The notes beneath the pieces are model-generated. The model had not been told where the DNA came from. It ran no database searches and worked only from the letters and a program-made list of their open reading frames with translations. Source: Clostridia bacterium (lineage in GTDB: Bacteria; Bacillota; Clostridia; UMGS1883). From it: a stretch of DNA of 64,000 nucleotides. The position numbers were made by a program, and so were the translations under genes. Of this stretch, positions 2-51,734 are shown piece by piece. The number at the start of each line of letters is the position of its first letter. The stretch's first letter is position 1. The DNA is taken from assembly GCA_045591265.1 (NCBI GenBank), contig JAZNSQ010000019.1, positions 16,067-80,066 of the forward strand, in the 5' to 3' direction.

Positions 2-2164
2 ATGGAAAATAAATTAGCATTAGATGGTAAGACAATTGAATTATTTGAAAGATTTTCCGTGCGCGAAAAGGACATAAAAAGTCTTGTGAAATGCGATATG
101 AAAAGCCACAACCAGTATGGTAATGTGTATGTTTTACTGACGGACTCTTTTATCGCTACCATAGGCGAGGACGGAGAATTTTATAAAATAGAGGCAGATA
201 AGATAAAGGACATTTTTGTAAGAACGTATGTGTCCTCGGCAAGCCTTGTGCTTCTTTGTGATGAAGAGGAGATTGTGCTTGGTTACTTTTCTCTAAAATG
301 TGCAAAGGCAGTTGAAAAATTTGTTTTCGATGTTTTAAAAAGAAATGAAGAGAATCTACAAAAGTCCGCTTATATTCCGGAGGGTGACTCCGTAACAAAG
401 GGCAGGAAAAAGCTTTTTCTTCGCGTTCTTTCATACATCCCCAAATACAAAAAGGACCTGTTTTTAACAATACTCGTAATTCTTTCTTCAAGTCTTGTAA
501 ATATTGTTAATCCCTATCTTACCGGTACAGTCCTTTACGATAATGTATTAGGTGGAAAAGGACCTCTTTCAGGTAAAATATTTACACTTGTAGGGATGCT
601 TGTCATAATCTCCGCAGTAAGTGTGTTTTTAGGCATTATGCGCGGGCGAATCGGCGCAAACCTTTCGGGAAATATCGTTTACGATATAAAGACGGAGGTT
701 TTTGGTGCAATGCAAAAGCTCGGCATGCGCTTTTTTACCTCCAAAAGAACCGGCAATCTCTTAAATCGTGTAAACAGTGATGCGCTTGACATTCAGTACT
801 TTTTAAATGACGGATTGCCGATTTTTATAATTAATGCAATGACTATTTTAGGCGTGGGACTTGTTTTGTTTTTTACAAATCCGCTTCTTTCTGTCACGGT
901 TTTAGTGCCTGTTCCGCTTATAGCATTAATAATAAAGGCATCAACCCGCAAATTCAAAAAGCTTAAATGGCACACATGGCGCCGTAGCTCAAAGCTTAAT
1001 TCTCTTATAAACGATACACTTTTGGGAATAAGGGTTGTAAAGGCATTCGGCAGAGAAGAAAATGAGGTAAAGCGCTTTGAATATGCAAATGAAGAATTTT
1101 ACCAAAACAGACTTCGTGAGGGGATTGCGGCAGCAAAGGTATTTCCGTTTTTAAGCTGGATTATGTCATCGGCAGGCGTTATTGTCTGGGCACTTGGGGG
1201 TACTCAGGTACTTTCAGGCGCGCTTACTTTTGGTGAGCTTATGACTTTTGCAGGCTATCTTACTCTTCTTTACGAACCGGTAAACTTTATGGTAAGAACC
1301 TTTGACTGGTGGACAAATTGTATGAACAGTGCCCAAAGAATTTTTGAGGTGATTGACAGAACCCCCGATGTTCCGGAATCGGAAACTCCGGTGCATCTTG
1401 AAAAAATACGCGGTGAAATAGAACTTAAAAACGTCACCTTCGCGTATGAGCCGAACAGAAACGTGCTTAAAAATGTATCTTTAAAAATAAATGAGGGCGA
1501 AATGATTGGCCTTGTCGGGCACAGCGGTGCAGGGAAAAGCACTATTACAAACATCATAACAAGGCTTTATGATGTAAATGAGGGTGATGTACTGCTTGAC
1601 GGAGTAAACGTAAAAGACATTAAAAAGGATGACCTCCACTCAAATATCGGTATGGTACTTCAGGATACGTTTTTATTTTCAGGCACAATCCGTGAAAACA
1701 TCTCCTACGGAAAGCCTGACGCCACTTATGAAGAAATTGTGCAGGCTGCAAAAAGTGCATATGCGCATGAATTTATTATAAGACTTCCCGAGGGGTATGA
1801 AACAAAAATCGGGAAAAGAGGTATTAACCTTTCAGGCGGTGAAAAGCAAAGAATTTCAATCGCGCGTGCAATTCTTATGAATCCCAGAATTCTTATTCTG
1901 GATGAGGCGACTTCCTCGCTCGATACTGAAACGGAAAAGAAAATTCAGGATGCACTCGATAAACTAATTGAGGGCAGAACAACAGTTGCGATAGCACATC
2001 GTCTTTCCACTCTCCGTAATGCAGACCGCCTTGTAGTTGTCGAAAACGGAGAAATTGTTGAAAGCGGAACTCACGAGGAGTTATTTAATAAAGTAGACGG
2101 AGTGTATCAGCGTATGGCAAAAAAACAGCTTGAGGCACTTCATCTTTACAGTGAGGTAGATTAA
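2..2164 (+). CDS. ABC transporter permease/ATP-binding protein (exporter half-transporter) with ~150-aa N-terminal cytoplasmic extension
   Basis: Walker A GHSGAGKST, ABC signature LSGGEKQRISIARA, Walker B ILILDEATS, and a six-helix TMD precede them. The N-terminal ~150 aa is homologous to the N-terminus of the downstream ABC protein. The ATG is at nt 2, so the gene could be 5'-truncated by the window edge. Confidence 0.85.
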   Translation: MENKLALDGKTIELFERFSVREKDIKSLVKCDMKSHNQYGNVYVLLTDSFIATIGEDGEFYKIEADKIKDIFVRTYVSSASLVLLCDEEEIVLGYFSLKCAKAVEKFVFDVLKRNEENLQKSAYIPEGDSVTKGRKKLFLRVLSYIPKYKKDLFLTILVILSSSLVNIVNPYLTGTVLYDNVLGGKGPLSGKIFTLVGMLVIISAVSVFLGIMRGRIGANLSGNIVYDIKTEVFGAMQKLGMRFFTSKRTGNLLNRVNSDALDIQYFLNDGLPIFIINAMTILGVGLVLFFTNPLLSVTVLVPVPLIALIIKASTRKFKKLKWHTWRRSSKLNSLINDTLLGIRVVKAFGREENEVKRFEYANEEFYQNRLREGIAAAKVFPFLSWIMSSAGVIVWALGGTQVLSGALTFGELMTFAGYLTLLYEPVNFMVRTFDWWTNCMNSAQRIFEVIDRTPDVPESETPVHLEKIRGEIELKNVTFAYEPNRNVLKNVSLKINEGEMIGLVGHSGAGKSTITNIITRLYDVNEGDVLLDGVNVKDIKKDDLHSNIGMVLQDTFLFSGTIRENISYGKPDATYEEIVQAAKSAYAHEFIIRLPEGYETKIGKRGINLSGGEKQRISIARAILMNPRILILDEATSSLDTETEKKIQDALDKLIEGRTTVAIAHRLSTLRNADRLVVVENGEIVESGTHEELFNKVDGVYQRMAKKQLEALHLYSEVD

Positions 2165-2671
2165 ATGAGTGAATTGAACTACATAAATAAAGAAGATGCC
2201 CACTTTTACGAAAATGAAAGCGGACTTCTGATGCTTAAATATAAGGGTGAGGATTTTGGTCGCGTCAGCATAAGAAGAATATTCCCCCTGAAATTTTCGG
2301 AGGAGTACCTATCCGTTGCCCGCGAAAATTATGCAAGAACGGATAAAAATGACGAGATTGGGATTATCCGTGACCTTAAGGAATTTGATACGGAGCAGTC
2401 AGAAATTGTAAGAAGGGAACTTGACAGGCGCTACTTTCTTCCCGAAGTTACAAAGGTTATAAGTGTTACCGAGGAATTCGGAAACACTACCTGGAAAGTA
2501 GAAACAACGGCAGGCAGTACCGATTTTACGGTTGAGGATATGTCTGCAAACATAATAAAGCTGAGCGAAAACACAGTAATTCTCATTGACGTGTTCTCAA
2601 ACAGATATCTTTTTAAGGACATCAAAAAGCTTGGCGACAAAACGGTGCAGGCACTGGAAATCTGGATATAA
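2165..2671 (+). CDS. small soluble protein sandwiched between the two ABC half-transporter genes (possibly a DUF1854-type ABC-associated protein)
   Basis: 168-aa ORF starting 1 nt after the upstream stop. Its end overlaps the region just before the next ABC gene's start. There are no TM segments. The family assignment is from memory only. Confidence 0.55.
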   Translation: MSELNYINKEDAHFYENESGLLMLKYKGEDFGRVSIRRIFPLKFSEEYLSVARENYARTDKNDEIGIIRDLKEFDTEQSEIVRRELDRRYFLPEVTKVISVTEEFGNTTWKVETTAGSTDFTVEDMSANIIKLSENTVILIDVFSNRYLFKDIKKLGDKTVQALEIWI

Positions 2672-2684
2672 AGAAGGGAAAAAT

Positions 2685-4904
2685 ATGAAACGCGGTTTTC
2701 TTACAACTGAATATGAAAGTCAAATTAACCGCGTTTTATGTGGCGAAAAAATCATCTTTAACTGCGAGTATGATTTGACTAACAACGATAAATACACAGA
2801 GGGCATATTTATAGTAACTAAAAAAAGCATTGCCGTTTTTGAAAATGGCGAAATTAAAGTTCTTGCTTCTCTTAAAAACATTCAGAAAATCTGTGTGGGC
2901 GAATTAATAGGCTGCGGAATTTTAGAGGCTTTTATAAACGAAGAAAGAAAGATGCTTGCACGCTTTTCTATGCGTCATATTGAAGCCTTCAGTGCAGCGG
3001 CAGAGGTAATAAACAGTCTTATAAACGGCGAAACCGTAGGCGAGATAGAGTTTGAAGAGGAAGAGAAAATCTGCCCCAAATGCGGCGGCACCTTTATCCA
3101 CGGAACTAAAGTGTGCAGAAAATGCACAAGCAGATTCAGTATGATAAAAAGGCTCTGGCAACTTTCAAAGTCCTGCAAGGGGATATATGCCTTTTTGGTT
3201 ATATTCTTTTTGGTGGCAAGCGTTATAAATATACTTACGCCTCACCTTAAAAAGAATCTTGTAAATGACGTTTTGACAGTTAAAAACGCAAGCAAGGAAG
3301 CACTTTTAGGCGTTGTTTTATTTATGTTTGTGCTGGGGGTAATCACATATCTTTTAAATGTTTTAAGAGATATCGCGTCATCCAAGGCAAGTAATCTTTT
3401 AGTTAAAAATTTGCGTGGTGCAATATACGAAAAACTGCAAAGAATGCCGCTTGGCTATATAGAAGAAAAAAACGCCGGCGACCTTATGCAGCGTATAAAT
3501 AATGACACACAGCGTATACAAAGCTTCATTCAGGATATTTTTATTCTCGCCGTGGGCGAAGTTATTATGGCAGTGGCAATCGGGATAATAACCTTTTCCA
3601 TAAACTATGTTATGGCGCTTTTAATCTTTGTGCCGATTCCCCCGTCAATTTATATGATTTATAAAATCCGTCTCAGCATCGGCAGGCGCTACAGAAAACA
3701 GTGGCGCGTGATGGATGTTTTAACAAGCAGACTTACCGATGTTTTAAACGGAATTAATGTTGTAAAGGTCTTCGGGCGTGAAGATGACGAGACAAGAAGA
3801 TTTAAGGATACTGCCCGAAATGTTAGAAACCTGACCTGCAAAAACGAAAAATATGTGTATACAATCTTTCCTATAATTAAATTTATTATGGGTTTTGGCA
3901 GTTATTTTGTTCTCCTTTACGGCGGAAGCAAGGTAATAGACGGCTCTCTTTCAGTAGGTGAGCTTGTGCAGTTTTCGGCATACGGAAGCTATCTTTACAG
4001 TAAGCTTGAGTGGTTTAGTATGGTTCCCCGCCACTTTACTATGGCGATGGCAAGCTCAAGCCGTGTGTTTGAAATACTTGATGCGCCGGAGCCTGAGGAA
4101 AAAGAAACAATAAGCGATATAGAAAACATAAACGGCGAATTTGAATTTGACAATGTGTCTTTTGGATATAAAAGCTACAGAAGAGTGTTGCGCGGGATTA
4201 ATGAAAGCGTAAAAAAAGGCGAGATGATAGGTCTTGTCGGTCACAGCGGTGCAGGAAAAAGCACACTTATAAATCTTATTATGAAGCTTTATTCTCCAAA
4301 CAAGGGGAAAATTATGCTTGACGGAAAAAATCTTGATTCCTATAGCGATAAGGACTACAAAAGCACGCTTGGAATTGTCCTGCAGGAAAACTATCTGTTT
4401 AGCGGAACGATACTTGATAATATTGCTTACGCTGCACCTAATGCCACGTATGAAGATATTATTCTCGCTGCAAAAAAGGCAAGTGCACATGACTTTATAG
4501 TAAATCTTCCCGATGGATATAATACCTATGTCGGCGAAAAGGGGCACCGTCTTTCAGGCGGAGAAAGGCAAAGAATTTCAATAGCACGTGCAATCGCGGC
4601 AAACCCTAAAATTATAATTCTTGATGAGGCAACTGCCTCGGTAGATACGGAAACGGAAATAAAAATACAAGAGGCGCTTTTAAATGTAACGCGTAATAAA
4701 ACAGTTTTCGCGATAGCGCATCGCCTTTCTACCCTTAAAAATGCAGACAGACTTTTTGTGCTTGACGAAGGAAGGGTAAAGGAAAAAGGCACTCATAAAG
4801 AGCTGGAGGAGAGTGGCGGAATATATTCATCACTTCTTCGTGCACAGCAGGATATGGTAAAATCAAAAATAACGATAGACAATATAAGCTTAAAGGAGTT
4901 CTGA
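2685..4904 (+). CDS. ABC transporter permease/ATP-binding protein with N-terminal cytoplasmic domain and Cys4 zinc ribbon
   Basis: Start chosen at ATG 2685 (RBS GAAGGGAAAAAT). Motifs: CPKCGG...CRKC ribbon, TMD, Walker A GHSGAGKST, LSGGERQRISIARA, IILDEATAS. Confidence 0.85.
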   Translation: MKRGFLTTEYESQINRVLCGEKIIFNCEYDLTNNDKYTEGIFIVTKKSIAVFENGEIKVLASLKNIQKICVGELIGCGILEAFINEERKMLARFSMRHIEAFSAAAEVINSLINGETVGEIEFEEEEKICPKCGGTFIHGTKVCRKCTSRFSMIKRLWQLSKSCKGIYAFLVIFFLVASVINILTPHLKKNLVNDVLTVKNASKEALLGVVLFMFVLGVITYLLNVLRDIASSKASNLLVKNLRGAIYEKLQRMPLGYIEEKNAGDLMQRINNDTQRIQSFIQDIFILAVGEVIMAVAIGIITFSINYVMALLIFVPIPPSIYMIYKIRLSIGRRYRKQWRVMDVLTSRLTDVLNGINVVKVFGREDDETRRFKDTARNVRNLTCKNEKYVYTIFPIIKFIMGFGSYFVLLYGGSKVIDGSLSVGELVQFSAYGSYLYSKLEWFSMVPRHFTMAMASSSRVFEILDAPEPEEKETISDIENINGEFEFDNVSFGYKSYRRVLRGINESVKKGEMIGLVGHSGAGKSTLINLIMKLYSPNKGKIMLDGKNLDSYSDKDYKSTLGIVLQENYLFSGTILDNIAYAAPNATYEDIILAAKKASAHDFIVNLPDGYNTYVGEKGHRLSGGERQRISIARAIAANPKIIILDEATASVDTETEIKIQEALLNVTRNKTVFAIAHRLSTLKNADRLFVLDEGRVKEKGTHKELEESGGIYSSLLRAQQDMVKSKITIDNISLKEF

Positions 4905-4905
4905 A

Positions 4906-5790
4906 ATGAAGGATTTTAAAATCATTACCGACAGTAACTGTGACATCCCCGTAGAAACAGTTGAAAAATTAGGAATAAGGGTACTTCCTATTTCATTTAC
5001 ATTTGACGGAGAAAACTACTATCGTGACGGGATTGATATAACCCACGAGGAGTTTTATGAAAAGCTTACACAAAACGCTCAAATCCCGAAAACAACGCAG
5101 GTTACTCCAATAGAATATTTGGACGCTTATAACGAAGAATACGATAACGGGAATGATAACTTACTTGTAATTACCATTTCCTCACGCGGAAGCGGAATGC
5201 ACAGTAACGCCGTAATGATGGCAAATGAGATAATGCAGGAACGCGGTGGAAATATTACGGTTGTTGATTCCATGGGCTTTTCGTGCATTACGGGCGCAGG
5301 CGTTATAAAAGCCGTTAAAATGAAAAATGAGGGTAAAAGTAAAGAAGAAATCGTAGAATTTTTAAATGATTTCTTCACAACAGTTCACGCATATTTCCTT
5401 GTAGGTGACCTTGAGCATCTTAAAAAAGGCGGAAGAATAAACACTGCAACGCTTGTTTTAGCTAATATGCTTGACATTAAGCCAATTCTTACAATTAAAG
5501 ACGGCATAGTAGTACAAAAAGATAAAATCCGCGGAAGTAAGCGTATCCTTAAAAAGCTTATAGAAAATATTGAAGATGACGGCTACGAGCTTGACGGAAA
5601 AGCAGTGATGGTGGCAAGTGCGGGAAACAAGGAAAAATTTGAAGAGCTTAAGGAAGAGCTTACAAAGCTTTTCCCAAATGTAAAGGTAAACAGATGCTCT
5701 ATCGGGCCTATCGTTGGATGCCACGGCGGACCTGACCTTTGCGGAGTTATTTTTTCCGATAAATACGATTTAGATGACTTTGAGGAATAA
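4906..5790 (+). CDS. DegV family fatty-acid-binding protein
   Basis: N-terminus MKDFKIITDSNCDIP and overall DegV pattern; 294 aa. Confidence 0.8.
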   Translation: MKDFKIITDSNCDIPVETVEKLGIRVLPISFTFDGENYYRDGIDITHEEFYEKLTQNAQIPKTTQVTPIEYLDAYNEEYDNGNDNLLVITISSRGSGMHSNAVMMANEIMQERGGNITVVDSMGFSCITGAGVIKAVKMKNEGKSKEEIVEFLNDFFTTVHAYFLVGDLEHLKKGGRINTATLVLANMLDIKPILTIKDGIVVQKDKIRGSKRILKKLIENIEDDGYELDGKAVMVASAGNKEKFEELKEELTKLFPNVKVNRCSIGPIVGCHGGPDLCGVIFSDKYDLDDFEE

Positions 5791-5792
5791 TT

Positions 5793-6647
5793 ATGTGGAT
5801 AGCAGAAAACTGGAAAGACTACGAGTGTATAGATACTGCAAGCGGTGAAAAGCTTGAGCGTTGGGGTAGCATTATCCTCCGCCGTCCTGACCCGCAGGTA
5901 ATCTGGGACGAAAAGTCAGTGCCAAAAAAATGGGAAAGTGCTGATGCATGGTATCACCGTTCACAAAGCGGTGGCGGAAAATGGGAATATAAAAAGGAAA
6001 TCCCTCAAAAATGGCAGATAAAATATAAAGACCTGACCTTTAATATTACTCCCACAGGCTTTAAGCATACAGGCCTTTTTCCCGAGCAGGCAGTAAACTG
6101 GGACTATATGATGGAAAAAATTAAAAAAGCACAAAGACCGATAAAGGTGCTTAACCTTTTTGCCTATACGGGCGGTGCAACTATCGCATGCGCCAAGGCA
6201 GGAGCAATGGTAACACACGTTGACGCGTCTAAAGGCATGGTTTTATGGGCAAAGGAAAATGCACAATCAAGCAATCTGGGGAATGCGCCTATCCGCTACC
6301 TTGTTGACGACTGTATGAAATTCGTTGAACGCGAAATAAGAAGGGGGAATAAGTATGATGCTATACTTATGGACCCACCGTCATACGGGCGCGGACCCGG
6401 GGGAGAAGTGTGGAAAATGGAGGACTCCATAGCGTCCTTTGTAAAAAGAACAGCGCTTCTTTTAAGTGATAATCCCCTTTTCTTTATAATTAACTCATAC
6501 ACAACGGGGCTTTCCCCTACAGTACTTACAAACCTTATGAAAATAAGCCTCCCTAAAGGGCGTGTGGAGGCAAGCGAAATAGGACTTAACATTACAGGCT
6601 CATCCATGGTGCTCCCTTGCGGTGCAACGGGAAGATGGGAAGGATAA
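5793..6647 (+). CDS. class I SAM-dependent methyltransferase (RlmI/YwbD-like catalytic domain)
   Basis: Motifs LNLFAYTGGATIACAKAGA (SAM binding) and DPPSYGRG (motif IV). Confidence 0.7.
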   Translation: MWIAENWKDYECIDTASGEKLERWGSIILRRPDPQVIWDEKSVPKKWESADAWYHRSQSGGGKWEYKKEIPQKWQIKYKDLTFNITPTGFKHTGLFPEQAVNWDYMMEKIKKAQRPIKVLNLFAYTGGATIACAKAGAMVTHVDASKGMVLWAKENAQSSNLGNAPIRYLVDDCMKFVEREIRRGNKYDAILMDPPSYGRGPGGEVWKMEDSIASFVKRTALLLSDNPLFFIINSYTTGLSPTVLTNLMKISLPKGRVEASEIGLNITGSSMVLPCGATGRWEG

Positions 6648-6648
6648 A

Positions 6649-7512
6649 ATGAACATTATCGAAGCAGAAAACCTTTTCTTTAAGTATGATGAGGAGGGAA
6701 ACTCCTACGTGCTTAAGGATTTAAACTTAAATATAGAAAAAGGAAGCTTTACCGCAATAATCGGTCATAACGGAAGCGGGAAAAGCACCTTTGCAAAGCA
6801 TCTTAATGCAATACTGCTTCCAAGTGGCGGAAGTGTGACGGTTTGCGGGATAGATACTTCCGACAAAAAGAAAATCTACGAGCTTCGCAAAAATGCAGGG
6901 ATGGTATTTCAAAACCCCGACAACCAAATTGTTGCAACTATTGTAGAAGAAGACGTTGCTTTCGGTTTAGAGAATATCGGTATTGAAAGAGAAGAAATGC
7001 ATTCGCGCGTTAAAGAAGCACTTACGGCAGTTGATATGTATGAATTTCGCACTCGCGCACCGCATCTTCTTTCAGGCGGGCAAAAGCAGCGCGTTGCAAT
7101 AGCAGGAATTCTTGCGATGAACCCCATGTGCATTATTCTTGATGAGCCAACCGCAATGCTTGACCCTCTTGGTCGCCGTGAGGTGCTTTCAACCATAAAA
7201 AAGCTAAATCGGGAAAAAGGCATAACGATAGTACTCATCACTCACTATATGGATGAAGCGTGCAGTGCCGACAGGGTGGTTGTGATGAATAAGGGGGAAA
7301 TTTCGCTTGACGCATCCCCAAAAGAAATATTTAAGGACGAGGAAGCACTTAAAAAACTCGGGCTTGACGTTCCGCAGAGTGTTGCTCTTTTAAACAGACT
7401 TAAGGAAGAAGGATTTAATCTTTCAGATAGTGCGCTTACTCCCGAAGAATGTGCACAGGAGATACTAAAGCTTTTTAAGAAAAATTCCGAAGGTAAGGAA
7501 AACCCAAAATGA
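6649..7512 (+). CDS. ecfA1: energy-coupling factor transporter ATPase EcfA1
   Basis: Walker A GHNGSGKST, LSGGQKQRVAIAGILA, ILDEPTAMLD. Start at ATG 6649 after GGAAGGA. It lies in the conserved ecfA1-ecfA2-ecfT-truA order. Confidence 0.9.
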   Translation: MNIIEAENLFFKYDEEGNSYVLKDLNLNIEKGSFTAIIGHNGSGKSTFAKHLNAILLPSGGSVTVCGIDTSDKKKIYELRKNAGMVFQNPDNQIVATIVEEDVAFGLENIGIEREEMHSRVKEALTAVDMYEFRTRAPHLLSGGQKQRVAIAGILAMNPMCIILDEPTAMLDPLGRREVLSTIKKLNREKGITIVLITHYMDEACSADRVVVMNKGEISLDASPKEIFKDEEALKKLGLDVPQSVALLNRLKEEGFNLSDSALTPEECAQEILKLFKKNSEGKENPK

Positions 7513-44575: not shown

Positions 44576-44809
44576 TTAAAAATCATGACACCCCTCGACA
44601 AAAATATTATATTTTTCAAATAAGCATACAATTTCTTCGACCATTTCAAAATCGGAGTATTTATCGTTTTCAATTATTTTTTGTATTTCGGATAATAGCT
44701 CAAGAGCAGTAGAATTAACTATCTCATTTGCATCAATTTCAAAATCCTGGATATGATATTTTACATAGTTAGAAATATATTTGTTTAATAATTGAGTTTT
44801 AATAAGCAT
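44576..44809 (-). CDS. small acidic hypothetical protein (77 aa)
   Basis: ATG preceded by GGAGGTGATAAA; divergent from the XRE gene; AT-rich. Confidence 0.5.
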   Translation of the reverse strand: MLIKTQLLNKYISNYVKYHIQDFEIDANEIVNSTALELLSEIQKIIENDKYSDFEMVEEIVCLFEKYNIFVEGCHDF

Positions 44810-44931
44810 TTTATCACCTCCTGAGACAAAATTTAATTTTGTCTCATTTTTACAACCAATTATAACATTCTTTGATAGTAAAATCAAGACAGAAGTGTAA
44901 AAAACGAGACAAATTTGATGTGGTGAATGCT

Positions 44932-45177
44932 ATGAAACAGAGAACTGAAGCAAATGGCAAAAATCTTATAGGAGAGAGACTTAAGGAGTTAAGAAGAAAT
45001 TCTAATCTATCTCAACGTGATTTGGCAAGGCAACTGCAACTTATTGGAATTGATATGGATAAGAATGTGATAACTCGAATTGAAACAAATAAGAGATACG
45101 TGACTGATTTTGAACTTCAGGCGCTTAAGGAGATTTTTAAAGTCAGCTATGATTACTTAATCGACGGAGAAAAATAA
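44932..45177 (+). CDS. XRE-family HTH transcriptional regulator
   Basis: LKELRRNSNLSQRDLARQLQLIG HTH; 82 aa from ATG 44932. Confidence 0.75.
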   Translation: MKQRTEANGKNLIGERLKELRRNSNLSQRDLARQLQLIGIDMDKNVITRIETNKRYVTDFELQALKEIFKVSYDYLIDGEK

Positions 45178-45195
45178 AATAATATGTTTAGATAA

Positions 45196-45236
45196 GGAAA
45201 AGAGACGATTTACGGATGGTAAATTGTCTCTTTTTT
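45196..45236 (+). terminator. terminator hairpin H1 (copy of a repeated ~40-bp hairpin element)
   Basis: GAGACGATTTAC-GGAT-GGTAAATTGTCTC followed by TTTTTT. Confidence 0.7.
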
Positions 45237-45407
45237 GCAAAATAGTAAATTTATTTGTCGCTATTATTCTTTGCAGTGTCAAGCATTTTATCATCTCCTG
45301 CGTATTATAGCATATAAATTTTAATTTTACAACAGAAATTTCTAATATATTTTAAAATCTAATTTTATCATATAATATAAATAAGATATGATATAAGGAT
45401 GATTGAT

Positions 45408-45575
45408 ATGGCATTTACACCCAGAGAAACGAAAAAGAAGGTCAAGGCAGGATATAAAACTTTGTATATCACTGATGAATTGGTTGAAAAAATTGATAAT
45501 CTTGCGAAAAAGCACGAGACAAGCTTTAACAATATTGTGATAAGCATTATAGAGGATTTTTTTAAAGAAAAATAA
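45408..45575 (+). CDS. small ribbon-helix-helix (CopG/Arc-like) protein, 55 aa, unannotated
   Basis: RBS AAGGATGA. It has a beta-strand KTLYITDELVEKI followed by two helices. It is followed by hairpin H2. Under 60 aa, so absent from the ORF track. Confidence 0.5.
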   Translation: MAFTPRETKKKVKAGYKTLYITDELVEKIDNLAKKHETSFNNIVISIIEDFFKEK

Positions 45576-45580
45576 ATAGA

Positions 45581-45622
45581 AGAGACAATTTTACCATCGG
45601 TAAATTGTCTCTTTTTTTCTGG
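45581..45622 (+). terminator. terminator hairpin H2 (second copy of the hairpin element)
   Basis: GAGACAATTTTACC-ATC-GGTAAATTGTCTC followed by TTTTTTT. Confidence 0.7.
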
Positions 45623-45645
45623 TGTCGGCGAGGGGGACAGATGCT
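45622..45645. repeat. degenerate partial copy of the tmRNA 3' end (candidate distal att remnant)
   Basis: CTGGTGTCGGCGAGGGGG versus the genuine 3' end CTGGTGGAGGCGAGGGGGG at 45825-45843. Confidence 0.5.
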
Positions 45646-45824
45646 ACGCATCTTGCCTGCTTGACGACCCAAATGCTTTGCATTTCGGTACCCGTCTGCG
45701 CACCAAAAAGCTAAAAAACTTGCCACAGGCAACTTTTTTAACGCTTTTTGCCCACTTTGGGTTCAACCCCCCTCTATAGTAAAAAAAGAAAGAGTATACC
45801 TTGCGGTACACCCTTTCTTTTTTT

Positions 45825-46171
45825 CTGGTGGAGGCGAGGGGGGTTGAACCCCTGTCCGAAAACATATTCACACAGGCATCTCCGAGCGCAGTCACTTAAT
45901 TAACATTCCCTCTGCCGTATGGCAAGTGACAGCCTCACGGTTTTAGTAGCTTCATTTGTCATGTATGGCGCAAAGCTTTGCCATATCACGTTCACCACTT
46001 TGTGACGCCCTTATCCAAGCCGTGGTCCTCCCGGTAAGGACGGCTACCTAATTAGGCAGCGTAAGCTAAATTTTTGTTAGCGTTTAATTTTAAAGTTTGG
46101 AATTTTAACGTAGTTTCCGCTACGGCTCGCTTCCCATGCTTCAACATCCCCGTCGAAACCGGAACGCCCCC
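45825..46171 (-). ncRNA. ssrA: tmRNA (SsrA)
   Basis: 5' end GGGGGCGTTCCGGTTTCGACGGGGATG. 3' tRNA-Ala-like end CGGACAGGGGTTCAACCCCCCTCGCCTCCACCA. An internal tag ORF ends ...AAC AAA AAT TTA GCT TAC GCT GCC TAA (..NKNLAYAA). It lies just downstream of smpB. Confidence 0.9.
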
Positions 46172-49274: not shown

Positions 49275-50012
49275 TTAAACGATGACCTTTCTTAACCATT
49301 CCAGCGTGCAGTTTACCATATGCTTGCCGGTTTCCTCACTTGCTTCTGTGGCGCTTTGGGCAAACCATTCTGTGTTACGTTCACAACGGCTAAGGTCTAC
49401 CAGCTCGGGATAGGTTCCCATCATAAGGCTCGTTTCCCATTTGCCTGCATGGTCAAAGCCACCGCACTTAATCTGTGCATCTGCTCCGATCAGGGGGAGA
49501 ACCTTGATGTAAGAGAAGGGATCATCTTCGCTACCCATATCCTCGTAATATGAGGCATAGTCATCGCTGCCCCACCAGCCTTTTCCAAGCTTTTCTTCCA
49601 TGTATTCCATGGTTACCTTTTTGGCAGCCTTATGGCAGGCAATTGTCATGGGCATCAAACCTGCGCCCTCTGTCTGATGATGAGCCACAAGGTATATGTT
49701 CTTATGACCAGCATTAATCATGGACTTCAGTATGTAGTACAAGTAGTTTGCATAAGCGTCCTCATCTACATGGAAATGGCTGGGCTTTGGAGCACATACT
49801 GCGTATGATGCCACACCGTACCAGATAGGAGGACAAACGACAATCTCCTTTTCCTTTTCAAGTTCTCTTAAGCAACCGGTAATAACAAGAGTATCCGTTC
49901 CGCAAGAAGCATGGCGGGCATGGTATTCCATAGTACCGATTGGAATAATAAATGGAACCTTTCTATCCACTGCATCTTGGATTTCATCATATAACATTTC
50001 AAGCATTTGCAT
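49275..50012 (-). CDS. creatininase-family amidohydrolase
   Basis: IIPIGTMEYHARHASCGTDT metal-binding N-terminal motif of the creatinine amidohydrolase family. Confidence 0.7.
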   Translation of the reverse strand: MQMLEMLYDEIQDAVDRKVPFIIPIGTMEYHARHASCGTDTLVITGCLRELEKEKEIVVCPPIWYGVASYAVCAPKPSHFHVDEDAYANYLYYILKSMINAGHKNIYLVAHHQTEGAGLMPMTIACHKAAKKVTMEYMEEKLGKGWWGSDDYASYYEDMGSEDDPFSYIKVLPLIGADAQIKCGGFDHAGKWETSLMMGTYPELVDLSRCERNTEWFAQSATEASEETGKHMVNCTLEWLRKVIV

Positions 50013-50363
50013 AATTTTTTCCTCCTATTTCTTTTAATTAATATAAATTATAAGCGAAATATCCGTAAAAGTCAAGGCACGTGGAGGATAAAAACTAAAG
50101 TACTGACTGTTATTACAGCAGGATTTGAGTTTAGAGTAAAAAGACTTTTTTACGAGAAAGCAGAACCATAGGAATATTTATATTTTAAATGGAATTGTTC
50201 GATTCTCTCACGATGAAATCCAAACAAGTTTTGATGAAATTAAATCCGTCTTTTATTCTTGCGAAGCAAGATTTCATCACGAAGTGATCTCATCTGCATA
50301 GCAGATTTATTCCGTCTTTGACGGATTTAGTAAAAAAACATCCACAAAGCAGATGCTATTTTT

Positions 50364-50545
50364 TGGTGGGCCTTTAGTTTGGGCGCAGGCAAACAATCCT
50401 GTGAATTGTTTGCCAGACCAAAGTCCCTGCGAGCTGAAAGCGAGTAGAAAACGAAGCTTGAAGCCGCCTTTAGGAAGGCCCCTTATAGGAATGCAGTCAC
50501 ACTGCAAAAAAAAACAGCACCCGCTAAAAAGCAGATGCTATTTTT
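50364..50545. repeat. 182-bp tandem-repeat unit copy 1 (begins with the 11-nt 3' end of tRNA-Met: TGGTGGGCCTT)
   Basis: Near-identical to 51397-51578. Contains a perfect 10-bp hairpin GGCAAACAAT-CCTGTGA-ATTGTTTGCC. Confidence 0.85.
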
Positions 50546-50575
50546 TGGAAGAGCCGAATGATTTAGATGCCAAAA

Positions 50576-50902
50576 TTAATATATATATGTAAATAAATTA
50601 CGAGCACCGCATTTCCTACAAATTTTTTCGCGGTTTTTTTCATTTGACCGTACTATACCAACAACTAATAAGTAAATAATCCCTGGGACAACACCTAACA
50701 AAAGTAGAACTAAACCGATAATAAAATCTATTCCTCTTAGTACCGGTCCCTTTTTCCATGGTGCTATATTACCACAACAAGTGCATTTTGGAATATCGTG
50801 TTCCTCTGGTTTTTCTTTTAATTCTGAACATGAACATCCACAGTTAGTACATACTATAGCCTCATCAATCATTTCTTTCCCACACTTTGAACAATACTTC
50901 AT
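50576..50902 (-). CDS. zinc-ribbon membrane protein (N-terminal CxxC...CxxC ribbon, one TM helix, C-terminal CxxC)
   Basis: CSKCG...CTNCGC, TM segment FIIGLVLLLLGVVPGIIYLLVVGIV, CRKCG; RBS AAGAGGTGAT upstream. Confidence 0.6.
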   Translation of the reverse strand: MKYCSKCGKEMIDEAIVCTNCGCSCSELKEKPEEHDIPKCTCCGNIAPWKKGPVLRGIDFIIGLVLLLLGVVPGIIYLLVVGIVRSNEKNREKICRKCGARNLFTYIY

Positions 50903-51020
50903 TTCAAATCACCTCTTAATATATTTCGTCGATATTTGTCAGTAGTATTTTATCCTACTTTATACTATTTGTCAATACTTTATAAGAAATAAGTATATAA
51001 TTATTTTTGAGGTGATTATT

Positions 51021-51179
51021 TTGAAACCATTAAAAGAGAAAATAAGTATAACCATTGATAGTGATATTTTGGAAAAATTACGAATCCTAGCTGAAAACGA
51101 TGATCGTTCGTTATCTCAATATATAAATATTATTCTAAAAGCGCATATAACCAAGGGAGTATCAAATTCTAATCATTAA
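51021..51179 (+). CDS. ribbon-helix-helix (CopG-like) DNA-binding protein, 52 aa, TTG start
   Basis: RBS GAGGTGAT 7 nt upstream of TTG 51021. ISITIDSDILEKLRILAENDDRSLSQYINIILKAHI fits the RHH beta-alpha-alpha fold; a terminator follows. Confidence 0.5.
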   Translation: MKPLKEKISITIDSDILEKLRILAENDDRSLSQYINIILKAHITKGVSNSNH

Positions 51180-51202
51180 AAAGATTCTAAATTGTTAAAT
51201 AT

Positions 51203-51245
51203 AAAAGCAGATTTATTTTAAAAAATAAATCTGCTTATTTTATTG
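51203..51245 (+). terminator. rho-independent terminator after the RHH gene
   Basis: AAAAGCAGATTTATTTT-AAAAAATAAATCTGCTT hairpin followed by a T-tract. Confidence 0.7.
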
Positions 51246-51396
51246 TCATTATAATTATTCTATTTGCCACAGTTCAAGTCTGGTTCAAAACTGCCTGTCA
51301 TCTACCCTTTTGGTTCAAAACTGATTTTTGCAAAAAGCCCTCAAATCATTGAAAAAAGCGAACAATTTAGATGTCATCTAAATCATTCGCTTCTTT

Positions 51397-51578
51397 TGGT
51401 GGGCCTTTAGTTTGGGCACAGGCAAACAATCCTGTGAATTGTTTGCCAGACCAAAGTCCCTGCGAGCTGAAAGCGAGTAGAAAACGAAGCTTGAAGCCGC
51501 CTTTAGGAAGGCCCCTTATAGGAATGCAGTCACACTGCAAAAAAAACAGCACCCGCTAAAAAGCAGATGCTATTTTTT
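51397..51578. repeat. 182-bp tandem-repeat unit copy 2, abutting the genuine tRNA-Met 3' end
   Basis: It differs from copy 1 at the sites that are visible by eye. It ends in AAAAGCAGATGCTATTTTTTGG, then runs directly into TGGGCC of the tRNA. Confidence 0.85.
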
Positions 51579-51654
51579 GGTGGGCCTTCAGGGACTCGAA
51601 CCCCGGACCGACCGGTTATGAGCCGGTTGCTCTAACCAACTGAGCTAAAAGCCC
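51578..51654 (-). tRNA. tRNA with CAT anticodon (elongator Met, or Ile2 if lysidinylated; sequence resembles Bacillus tRNA-Ile2)
   Basis: Reverse complement GGGCTTTTAGCTCAGTTGGTTAGAGCAACCGGCTCATAACCGGTCGGTCCGGGGTTCGAGTCCCTGAAGGCCCACCA. Confidence 0.85.
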
Positions 51655-51659
51655 TTATA

Positions 51660-51734
51660 TGGTGACCCGTACGAGATTTGAACTCGTGTTCCCGCCGTGA
51701 AAGGGCGGTGTCTTAACCGCTTGACCAACGGGCC
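51660..51734 (-). tRNA. tRNA-Glu (anticodon TTC)
   Basis: Reverse complement GGCCCGTTGGTCAAGCGGTTAAGACACCGCCCTTTCACGGCGGGAACACGAGTTCAAATCTCGTACGGGTCACCA. Confidence 0.85.

Follow-up and report, generated by a model that had tools for sequence, protein, structure and literature searches.

The 64-kb window, by which we mean the whole stretch of Clostridia bacterium DNA that was analysed, contains a tRNA-Met(CAT) gene followed by two copies of a unit of about 182 bp. These lie head to tail and are now separated by an unrelated 847-bp insertion (E element). A tandem repeat seeded by the end of this tRNA had been described in the original prediction, and sequence, repeat search and blastn agree that it is real. 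Unit 1 spans 50364-50545 (182 bp) and unit 2, next to the tRNA, 51397-51577 (181 bp). In a promoter scan, a promoter-like site was detected at 51782->51754, ahead of the tRNA-Glu(TTC) gene that opens the operon. Read in tRNA sense, the parts follow each other as gene 3' end, variable terminator hairpin (t1), inverted copy of the gene end, hairpin-rich interior, direct copy of the gene end and downstream DNA, with a small hairpin between the terminator hairpin and the inverted copy in the units of the window. A module thus arranged measures ~140 bp, to which the 40-bp hairpin is added, and its interior defines what we call type A. The features of the array are:

51660-51734, minus strand: tRNA-Glu(TTC), first gene in the tRNA operon (ARAGORN, Rfam)
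51578-51654, minus strand: tRNA-Met(CAT), the host gene, of which the last 14 nt, CTGAAGGCCCACCA, are the sequence copied by the modules (ARAGORN, Rfam)
51539-51577, minus strand: proximal hairpin t1, with an A-tract, an 11-12-bp stem AUAGCAUCUGCU/AGCGGGUGCUGU and U8 (fold, sequence)
51508-51515: inverted copy of module 2, AAGGCCCC on the plus strand, which pairs with the direct copy and closes the module (folds)
51411-51507: type A interior of module 2, with a TTTGG/CCAAA stem, a perfect 10-bp hairpin (loop CCTGTGA), the invariant CAAAGTCCCTGCGAG and a second stem-loop (alignment, RNAalifold, covariance model)
51397-51410: direct copy of module 2, TGGTGGGCCTTTAG on the plus strand, matching tRNA-Met in 13 of 14 nt
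50506-50548, minus strand: distal hairpin t1 together with the first TGG of the direct copy of module 2 (repeat search, sequence)
50364-50505: module 1 (distal), with direct copy 50364-50377, interior 50378-50474, inverted copy 50475-50482 and small hairpin 50493-50505
50337-50363, minus strand: array end, in which 50346-50363 is a third copy of the start of t1, followed by a weak terminator-like hairpin (AGCATCTGCTTTGTGGATGTT + T5)

Units 1 and 2 share 98.9% identity and differ by one G/A substitution and by one A fewer in an A-run (blastn and pairwise alignment, repeat search), so the duplication is not exact as had been proposed. Both begin with TGGTGGGCCTT on the plus strand, which is the last 11 nt of the adjacent tRNA, and both finish with ...AAAAAGCAGATGCTATTTTTT(GG), in agreement with the original prediction. 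The 11-nt core is nevertheless too short a description, since the likeness to the tRNA end runs over 14 nt with one mismatch (CT[A/G]AAGGCCCACCA; CTAAAGGCCCACCA versus CTGAAGGCCCACCA) and the stretch common to the junctions is longer still. Together with TGGTGGGCCTT, the 18-nt stretch that precedes it forms 29 nt (~31 nt with neighbouring positions) that are identical at all three junctions, namely next to the tRNA, between unit 1 and unit 2, and at the distal array end (50346-50374). The third, partial copy of 18 nt at 50346-50363 brings the array to ~2.17 periods. The proximal 42-nt t1 stretch is 100% identical to 50507-50548; in tRNA sense it resembles an intrinsic terminator and parts the tRNA from module 2. 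Not mentioned in the original prediction is AAGGCCCC, in which a short part of the acceptor 3' strand of the tRNA is repeated in inverted orientation; it is found at 50475-50482 and 51508-51515, where in module 2 the conserved CCTTTAGG (51500-51507) adjoins it. With blastn, no other copy of the unit or of the 847-bp insertion was found in the 64-kb window. As there is no further copy and the units have a G+C content of 47% compared with 39% for the window, the repeat is not due to chance; in the neighbouring spacers the G+C content is ~30%. No credible open reading frame (ORF) was found in the units.

A module family at tRNA and tmRNA 3' ends

Species-representative genomes were scanned with the 3' 38-mer of tRNA-Met, which gave at least 120 loci. 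Homologues of the unit with ~82% identity lie directly behind the same tRNA-Met in two metagenome-assembled genomes (MAGs), L094 and L081 (blastn, among the matches listed), and L094 has two tandem type A copies. A metagenome scan with an interior-only pattern yielded four further contigs, all four of which adjoin a tRNA-type 3' end copy. In two of them (L129, L131) the type A unit stands directly behind tRNA-Lys(CTT); the other two reach the contig end and hold two tandem type A units (L132) or a type A unit joined to a module of another type (L130). A covariance model (R1) was built from eight type A sequences with the window excluded (L129, L131, two each from L094 and L132, L130, L081). 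R1 recovers all of its training copies at 122-152 bits and matches the window at 50363-50485 with 116.1 bits (E ~1e-32 to 4e-32) and at 51396-51518 with 113.3 bits (E ~1e-31), and elsewhere in the window it finds nothing above 16 bits. Since the model was trained on foreign sequences only, these scores make the units of the window members of type A. They also lie where type A modules lie, directly downstream of a tRNA with the direct copy at the far end and the inverted copy at the near end. Type A is a small non-coding module that is confined to tRNA and transfer-messenger RNA (tmRNA) 3' ends in Clostridia. As a separate observation, the tRNA-Lys gene of L129 is split in the anticodon loop by a tyrosine-integrase island with TTTAGTCAAAA arm repeats (~4600-5230), and the displaced 3' half of the tRNA retains the type A module.

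A second interior was found via repeated tRNA-end copies downstream of the at least 120 tRNA-Met loci. This type B module of ~200 bp is present, among the matches listed, in L029, L068, L104, L115, L052, L056, L081 and L130, and a third type (C) in L096 and L028. L090 carries a type-B-like module behind tRNA-Trp, with copies that match tRNA-Trp. Composites of A and B occur in L052, L130 and L081, which points to accretion. Types A and B share a hairpin with the stem AAAACARU and the loop CCUGUGA, which is on the same strand as, and just after, the TGGTG... copy and is located at opposite module ends in A and B. The window itself holds a type B module behind its tmRNA gene:

45620-45825: type B module behind the tmRNA gene (45826-46171, minus strand) (blastn, nhmmer, alignment, host-match matrix)
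45620-45638: direct copy of this module, followed by the interior
~45756-45775: inverted T-arm copy
45780-45825: terminator hairpin

The type B model matches the window at 45631-45807 (nhmmer, E = 1.3e-22). The module begins with TGGTGTCGGCGAGGGGGAC, a slightly diverged tmRNA 3' end, and finishes with TTGGGTTCAACCCCCCTC, the inverted tmRNA T-arm, after which the terminator hairpin follows. The small ORFs beyond it (44576-45575) are of the XRE and ribbon-helix-helix types and hint at the remains of an old island.

Every module repeats, at its far end and in direct orientation, the 3' end of the neighbouring gene over 14 nt in type A and ~18 nt in types B and C, where the copy ends in the T-loop; at times the direct repeat also takes in 13-45 nt of the hairpin that follows. 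At the near end, the inverted copy measures 8-28 nt; in type A of the window it is only 7-8 nt long (AAGGCCCC) compared with 11-28 nt in the other members. Since the complement of the T-loop is part of the inverted copy in type B, this copy is a genuine inversion and not the 5' strand of a tRNA. The same interior is found with different hosts: type A at tRNA-Met and at tRNA-Lys (L129, L131; direct copy TGGTGCGCCATCAG, inverted copy ATGGCGCACCA), type B at tRNA-Met, tRNA-Trp and tmRNA. When nine inverted copies were compared with four host 3' ends in a cross-matrix, the own host scored highest in seven of the nine; L094b tied with tmRNA, and for L104 the score was marginally better with tRNA-Lys, whose T-arm hardly differs from that of tRNA-Met. 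Two variants of the copies recur, the direct-copy variant CTAAAGGCCC in type A (window, L094a, L132, L130) and the inverted-copy variant TGGTGAGGYTT, which both types A and B show in different MAGs. These variants are carried with the module while the tRNA keeps CTGAAGG, which fits a conservative crossover 3' of the T-stem.

Three other identities were considered and rejected. A tRNA paralogue or pseudo-tRNA does not agree with a proximal copy that is the complement of ACCA and, in type B, of the T-loop (ACTCGAA, not TTCGAGT), and ARAGORN calls no tRNA in the units. The 18-nt copy of type B is not a retroelement primer-binding site, since the complement of CCA faces outward and the copy of type A has only 14 nt; reverse-transcriptase context was not noticed beside the modules, although no search was aimed at it. 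A miniature inverted-repeat transposable element (MITE) was dismissed because no target duplication was seen at the outer edges when the flanks were compared by eye, and no other copy is present in the window.

Modules are found behind only part of the genes that could carry them. An inverted T-arm copy within 600 nt downstream was detected in 13 of 115 loci with identical tRNA-Met (among the matches listed). For all 379 tRNAs of the loci studied, a direct copy of the last 14 nt was present within 450 nt downstream in 20, some of which are true gene duplicates, and upstream in 6. With TspO as synteny anchor, two contigs (L133, L134) of a relative were obtained, in which TspO is 75% identical and the gene order is that of the window (aminotransferase-spoIIGA-sigE-TspO-tRNA-Glu-tRNA-Met). 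Neither of these syntenic contigs contains a type A unit. One shows a terminator and a decayed type B fragment behind tRNA-Met, and the other, L134, ends (4767) exactly at tRNA-Met ...CCAAAAAA; such repeated junctions probably break short-read assemblies. The spacer between tRNA-Met and tRNA-Asp is empty in L097, L113 and L054 (30-90 nt) and in L096 is filled by a module of 167 bp between direct repeats of 31 bp. This patchy presence indicates that the modules are sporadic and not vertically fixed. The creatininase gene (49275-50012) was discarded as a synteny anchor, as homologues with 85-93% identity lie in unrelated neighbourhoods, and exact-match queries with proteins of the window gave no result; the gene may be part of the variable region behind tRNA-Met rather than of the conserved secG-rnr-smpB-ssrA block. 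A different, shorter kind of tRNA-end tandem repeat was seen in L026 (4930-5110) and also in L028 and L124, where the terminal 25 nt of tRNA-Phe (GGTTCGATTCCACCTTAGGGCACCA) recur two to three times directly behind the gene with a period of ~80 nt.

Fold and covariation of the interior

On the minus strand the fold of the unit joins GGGGCCUU, the complement of the acceptor 3' strand, with CUAAAGGCCCACCA, in which the tRNA end is copied directly. The enclosed interior of ~100 nt includes a UUUGG/CCAAA stem around a perfect 10-bp hairpin and a second stem-loop. The hairpin, GGCAAACAAT/ATTGTTTGCC, had been noticed before, and the fold lengthens its stem to 12 pairs. A folding energy of -69 kcal/mol (z = -5.0) was obtained for the minus strand, and a mirror fold with z = -3.0 for the plus strand.

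This pairing is conserved across the family. In type A (10 sequences) 31 pairs were scored, of which 10 show compensatory changes, and 98% of the cells are paired, compared with 35-54% when the partners were slid by one to three columns. In type B (nine sequences) there are 39 pairs, 14 of them compensatory, 96% of the cells are paired, and complete stem flips occur, such as TTTTTGC/GCAAAAA to AAAAAGC/GCTTTTT. None of 500 shuffles reached as high a value in either type. One-sided (wobble) changes are rare and without strand bias, 5 versus 7 in type B and confined to one clade in type A, and a choice of strand by G-U versus A-C mismatches gave no strand signal. With wobble changes so few and unbiased, the data do not decide between selection on an RNA and on a DNA hairpin.

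A conserved fold would be expected if the unit were the gene for a structured small RNA, in which the copies of the tRNA end serve the function of the RNA and are not scars of recombination. Such an RNA might be made in tRNA sense by read-through of the operon; with an acceptor-like stem (GGGGCCUU/AAGGCCC) and an ACCA end, it would then mimic the tRNA end for tRNA processing enzymes. Alternatively it might be made from the opposite strand, its first 14-18 nt being complementary to the tRNA 3' end, and act as an antisense regulator. The original prediction had offered a CCA-ending RNA co-transcribed with the tRNAs as its second possibility and had suggested a check with Infernal and Rfam. The strong minus-strand fold agrees with this, as does the covariation above shuffled and slid controls in both module types, but Rfam 15 gave no match over the units at gathering thresholds, permissive scans returned weak chance-level matches only, and the promoter scan detected no promoter-like site for the units on either strand. 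Read-through is met by a strong terminator ahead of every unit in tRNA sense, and type B has a terminator-like, A/U-flanked hairpin in the middle of the module. The G+C content of the units, which exceeds that of the adjacent spacers, would suit an RNA gene, as would the invariant single-stranded CAAAGTCCCTGCGAG, the hairpin loop CCUGUGA common to A and B, and a known orphan motif (Gut-1, see below) that adjoins such modules. The small number of G-U intermediates on the plus strand can be added to these points, yet the rarity of one-sided changes and their lack of strand bias speak against an RNA. Furthermore, the modules are absent from the syntenic locus of the relative and from ~90% of the genomes with the same tRNA (among the matches listed), and an RNA function leaves the host-tracking termini unexplained. 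We therefore regard an RNA gene as unlikely. Were the units RNAs after all, they would constitute a new class of RNAs that mimic or bind tRNA ends.

Insertion, duplication and rival origins

From the anatomy, the family membership, the host-matched termini, the covariation, the sporadic distribution and the absence from the syntenic relative, we infer mobility as a unit and, with it, a recombination mechanism, a helper enzyme and an order of events. The reading that we favour, and to which we give about an even chance, takes the unit for an insertion module that is non-autonomous and site-specific for tRNA and tmRNA 3' ends and that was duplicated here via the 31-bp repeats on its flanks. A free copy of the module, for example a circle, would recombine site-specifically with the terminal ~14-18 bp of the gene, with a crossover 3' of the T-stem. 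The gene would stay intact and gain a new terminator, and the copy of its 3' end would be moved to the far side of the module, as is the case with genomic islands. As the module encodes nothing, a recombinase would have to act in trans, in the manner of a cis-mobilizable element or a MITE. The inverted copy makes a palindromic junction with a direct one, be it the gene end or the direct copy of the preceding module, and with the hairpin between the two; this junction is probably the recognition site of the putative enzyme.

For the array of the window, the simplest origin is unequal recombination, as its two copies including the hairpins are 99% identical; one resident module would have been duplicated recently between the 31-bp flanking repeats. 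In L094 and in L132 the two type A units bear different hairpins, which points to successive insertions (accretion) there and not to simple slippage. The original prediction had seen in the units att-type scars of a tiny integrative element. The host-matched termini, the sporadic presence and the absence from the syntenic locus of the relative support the core of this idea. However, a conserved and covarying interior, an additional inverted tRNA-end copy and the lack of an integrase amount to more than the scar of an 11-nt core, and the two copies in the window resemble a recent duplication of one resident module and not two integrations.

The following features belong to the insertion that splits the array:

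50549-51395: E element, 847 bp, with inverted ends AAGAGCCGAATGATTTAGATGCCA / TGTCATCTAAATCATTCGCTTCTT of 24 nt that are 88% complementary (repeat search)
50576-50902, minus strand: ORF in the E element for a 108-aa zinc-ribbon membrane protein
51012-51179, plus strand: ORF in the E element for a 55-aa ribbon-helix-helix protein

No transposase was found in the E element, which contains these two small ORFs only. That it entered the array later, as had been proposed, is supported by its place within the junction copy of the tRNA-proximal module, exactly at the ...CCA|AAAA junction of the direct copy of module 2. TTGG is duplicated on both sides (50545-50548 and 51396-51399). The length of 847 bp stands, whereas the target duplication, given before as 4 bp (851 bp in total), is ambiguous and may comprise 4-6 bp (TTGG to TTTTGG). 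An insertion into a junction copy that is borne by a module implies that the copied junction is still usable as a target, and it would place the E element after the duplication, as an unrelated element that took the copied ...CCA|AAAA junction as its target. E-type ends (CATCTAAAnCnTTCGGCTCTT, also written CATCTAAA...CTCTT) were found three times in L056 downstream of tRNA-Met; L029 and a predicted viral contig of 73.8 kb have one each. In the window, in L029 and in two of the three cases in L056, the end directly adjoins CCAAAA, the CCA of the tRNA followed by the A-tract of the terminator; the third L056 end lies against the terminator hairpin belonging to a type B module. By analogy with the content of L056, the E element may be moved by a serine recombinase. 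The L056 locus contains an island of ~6.5 kb (537-7075) between tRNA-Met and a type B module, with genes for a large serine recombinase of 521 aa, for a KilA-N protein and for a SocA-like antitoxin. Two tandem units of ~187 bp in this island each finish in an E-type end, which is followed by CCAAAA and a terminator.

Several points weigh against a module that is inserted by a helper enzyme. No recombinase was found beside any module, and tblastn with two queries, a tyrosine integrase and a large serine recombinase, which make for a weak search, found nothing in the 64-kb window or in the unit-bearing loci. An autonomous relative with the same ends was not detected in phage, plasmid and viral-contig collections by pattern or blastn searches, nor in the loci studied. 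Classical integrases that target tRNA genes do not need an inverted copy of the gene end and are not known to leave one behind, and classical integrase sites do not explain this copy. The sample is small, with ~10 type A and ~10 type B copies that come mostly from MAGs, and the empty and filled sites that were compared belong to different species, the syntenic relative being a distant one. Finally, template switching during replication can change both sides of a hairpin in one step (PMC8794818), so covariation alone does not prove selection.

The same locus could hold inert debris, if an integrase island or prophage in tRNA-Met had decayed to its two attachment (att) arms, which were then duplicated locally, and if the other modules were independent decays of this kind. 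A displaced tRNA 3' fragment is the mark of island integration by which Islander operates (PMC4383910), and such a fragment is present downstream of the regenerated gene at the locus of the window. Dehalococcoides is known to have tandem arrays in which tmRNA-gene ends are repeated (PMC3146451). The locus is also a hotspot, with the E element here, the large serine recombinase island in L056 and the tyrosine-integrase island that splits tRNA-Lys in L129, and the 99% identity of the copies in the window fits a local duplication. Independent decay, however, predicts end-points that differ, whereas the same interior and junctions are seen at different genes. The hairpins moreover keep their pairing via compensatory changes, and phage, plasmid and viral-contig searches did not reveal a full-length element with these arms. 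Decay is thus not a probable source of the modules.

A local replication error would dispense with foreign DNA altogether. Template switching at the terminator hairpin would have produced first an inverted and then a direct copy, and slippage the array. The geometry of direct copy, hairpin, inverted copy and, further on, direct copy is what such events would leave, the inverted copy usually lies 0-3 nt from the T-run of the terminator, and template switching is known to create or perfect hairpins (PMC8794818; quasipalindromes, PMC7202029). The interiors are nevertheless not derived from the host, as local alignment to host genes scored no better than shuffles; inverted host tmRNA or tRNA sequence, as a tandem inversion duplication would leave, was rejected on equal scores. 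The same interior stands behind different genes in different organisms, and variants of the inverted copy are inherited with the module. A shared foreign interior largely refutes this explanation, which we consider very improbable.

Known islands are among the closest parallels to the modules. Like islands in tRNA and tmRNA genes (PMC4383910; PMC3146451), the modules leave the gene intact, add foreign DNA and a direct copy of the 3' end, accrete in tandem and are sporadically present, and in both cases identity starts in or near the T-arm and may pass the CCA into the terminator. They differ by a size of ~180 bp, by the lack of integrase and cargo, by the extra inverted copy and by a conserved interior that is wholly structured in hairpins. 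Cis-mobilizable elements (CIMEs) in the accretion of streptococcal integrative and conjugative or integrative and mobilizable elements (ICEs and IMEs; PMC5704250) are likewise flanked by att sites, lack recombination genes, depend in theory on a helper and form tandem arrays that share att sites. The modules, too, are flanked by att-type direct repeats and contain no genes for recombination or transfer. CIMEs, in contrast, are kilobases long and derived from a known ICE, whereas the modules have a palindromic site and no parent or helper was identified. MITEs resemble them in being small, non-coding and structured with inverted termini; the modules have no target-site duplication, reside only at tRNA and tmRNA 3' ends and have termini that vary with the neighbouring gene.

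Integron attC cassettes and the pdif modules of Acinetobacter plasmids are small promoter-less units in arrays, with sites that are imperfect palindromes with conserved arms and a variable hairpin centre, and each pdif module lies between sites in inverted orientation. By analogy, the modules might represent an unrecognised class of cassettes without a recombinase, whose attC- or pdif-like site would be the folded palindrome of host 3' end, variable hairpin and inverted copy. Arrays would then grow behind tRNA and tmRNA genes, and retargeting would require a change of the two arm copies; in a variant of this proposal the arm copies would be RNA guides complementary to the tRNA end. The modules differ from attC and pdif units in that no enzyme of the IntI or Xer type was identified, in that the arms are the tRNA or tmRNA 3' end and not R''/R' or XerC/D boxes, and in that there is no ORF. 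A separate cassette class is quite doubtful. No description of such modules was found in Rfam or in the full-text literature. If the modules move as units, as in the insertion reading, they would be the smallest known passengers of the tRNA-gene integration niche. A gene-end copy of 14-28 bp in both orientations that tracks its target would then constitute a natural, re-targetable form of site-specific insertion, and the modules would account for the hypervariability of the spacers that follow tRNA and tmRNA genes in gut Clostridia. Each module adds a new terminator to the tRNA operon and may affect tRNA 3' processing and read-through.

Hairpin arrays beyond the modules

The Gut-1 RNA motif (RF01706) is an orphan hairpin-array motif of gut metagenomes (Weinberg 2010, PMC2864571). 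It was detected directly beyond the type B module in L104 (71.5 bits), and a weak match lies beyond unit 1 of the window (50266-50333, minus strand, 27.8 bits compared with a gathering score of 50). The motif differs from the unit in sequence and structure, and the unit itself has no Gut-1 match. The modules thereby give this orphan motif a genomic context, and Gut-1 may be, or overlap, arm-type DNA repeats by the attachment site of a phage or island that targets tRNA-Met. In the window, short perfect hairpins spaced by GAUGAAAU occupy 50180-50345, between unit 1 and the promoter of the creatininase gene. Similar hairpin arrays follow the modules in L056, L119, L029 and L122. Gut-1-like arrays also flank an E-type end (AAGAGCCGAACGGTTTAGATG) in L135 (600-1056), at the end of the viral contig IMGVR_UViG_3300031555_007195, and in L056 (7320-7530).

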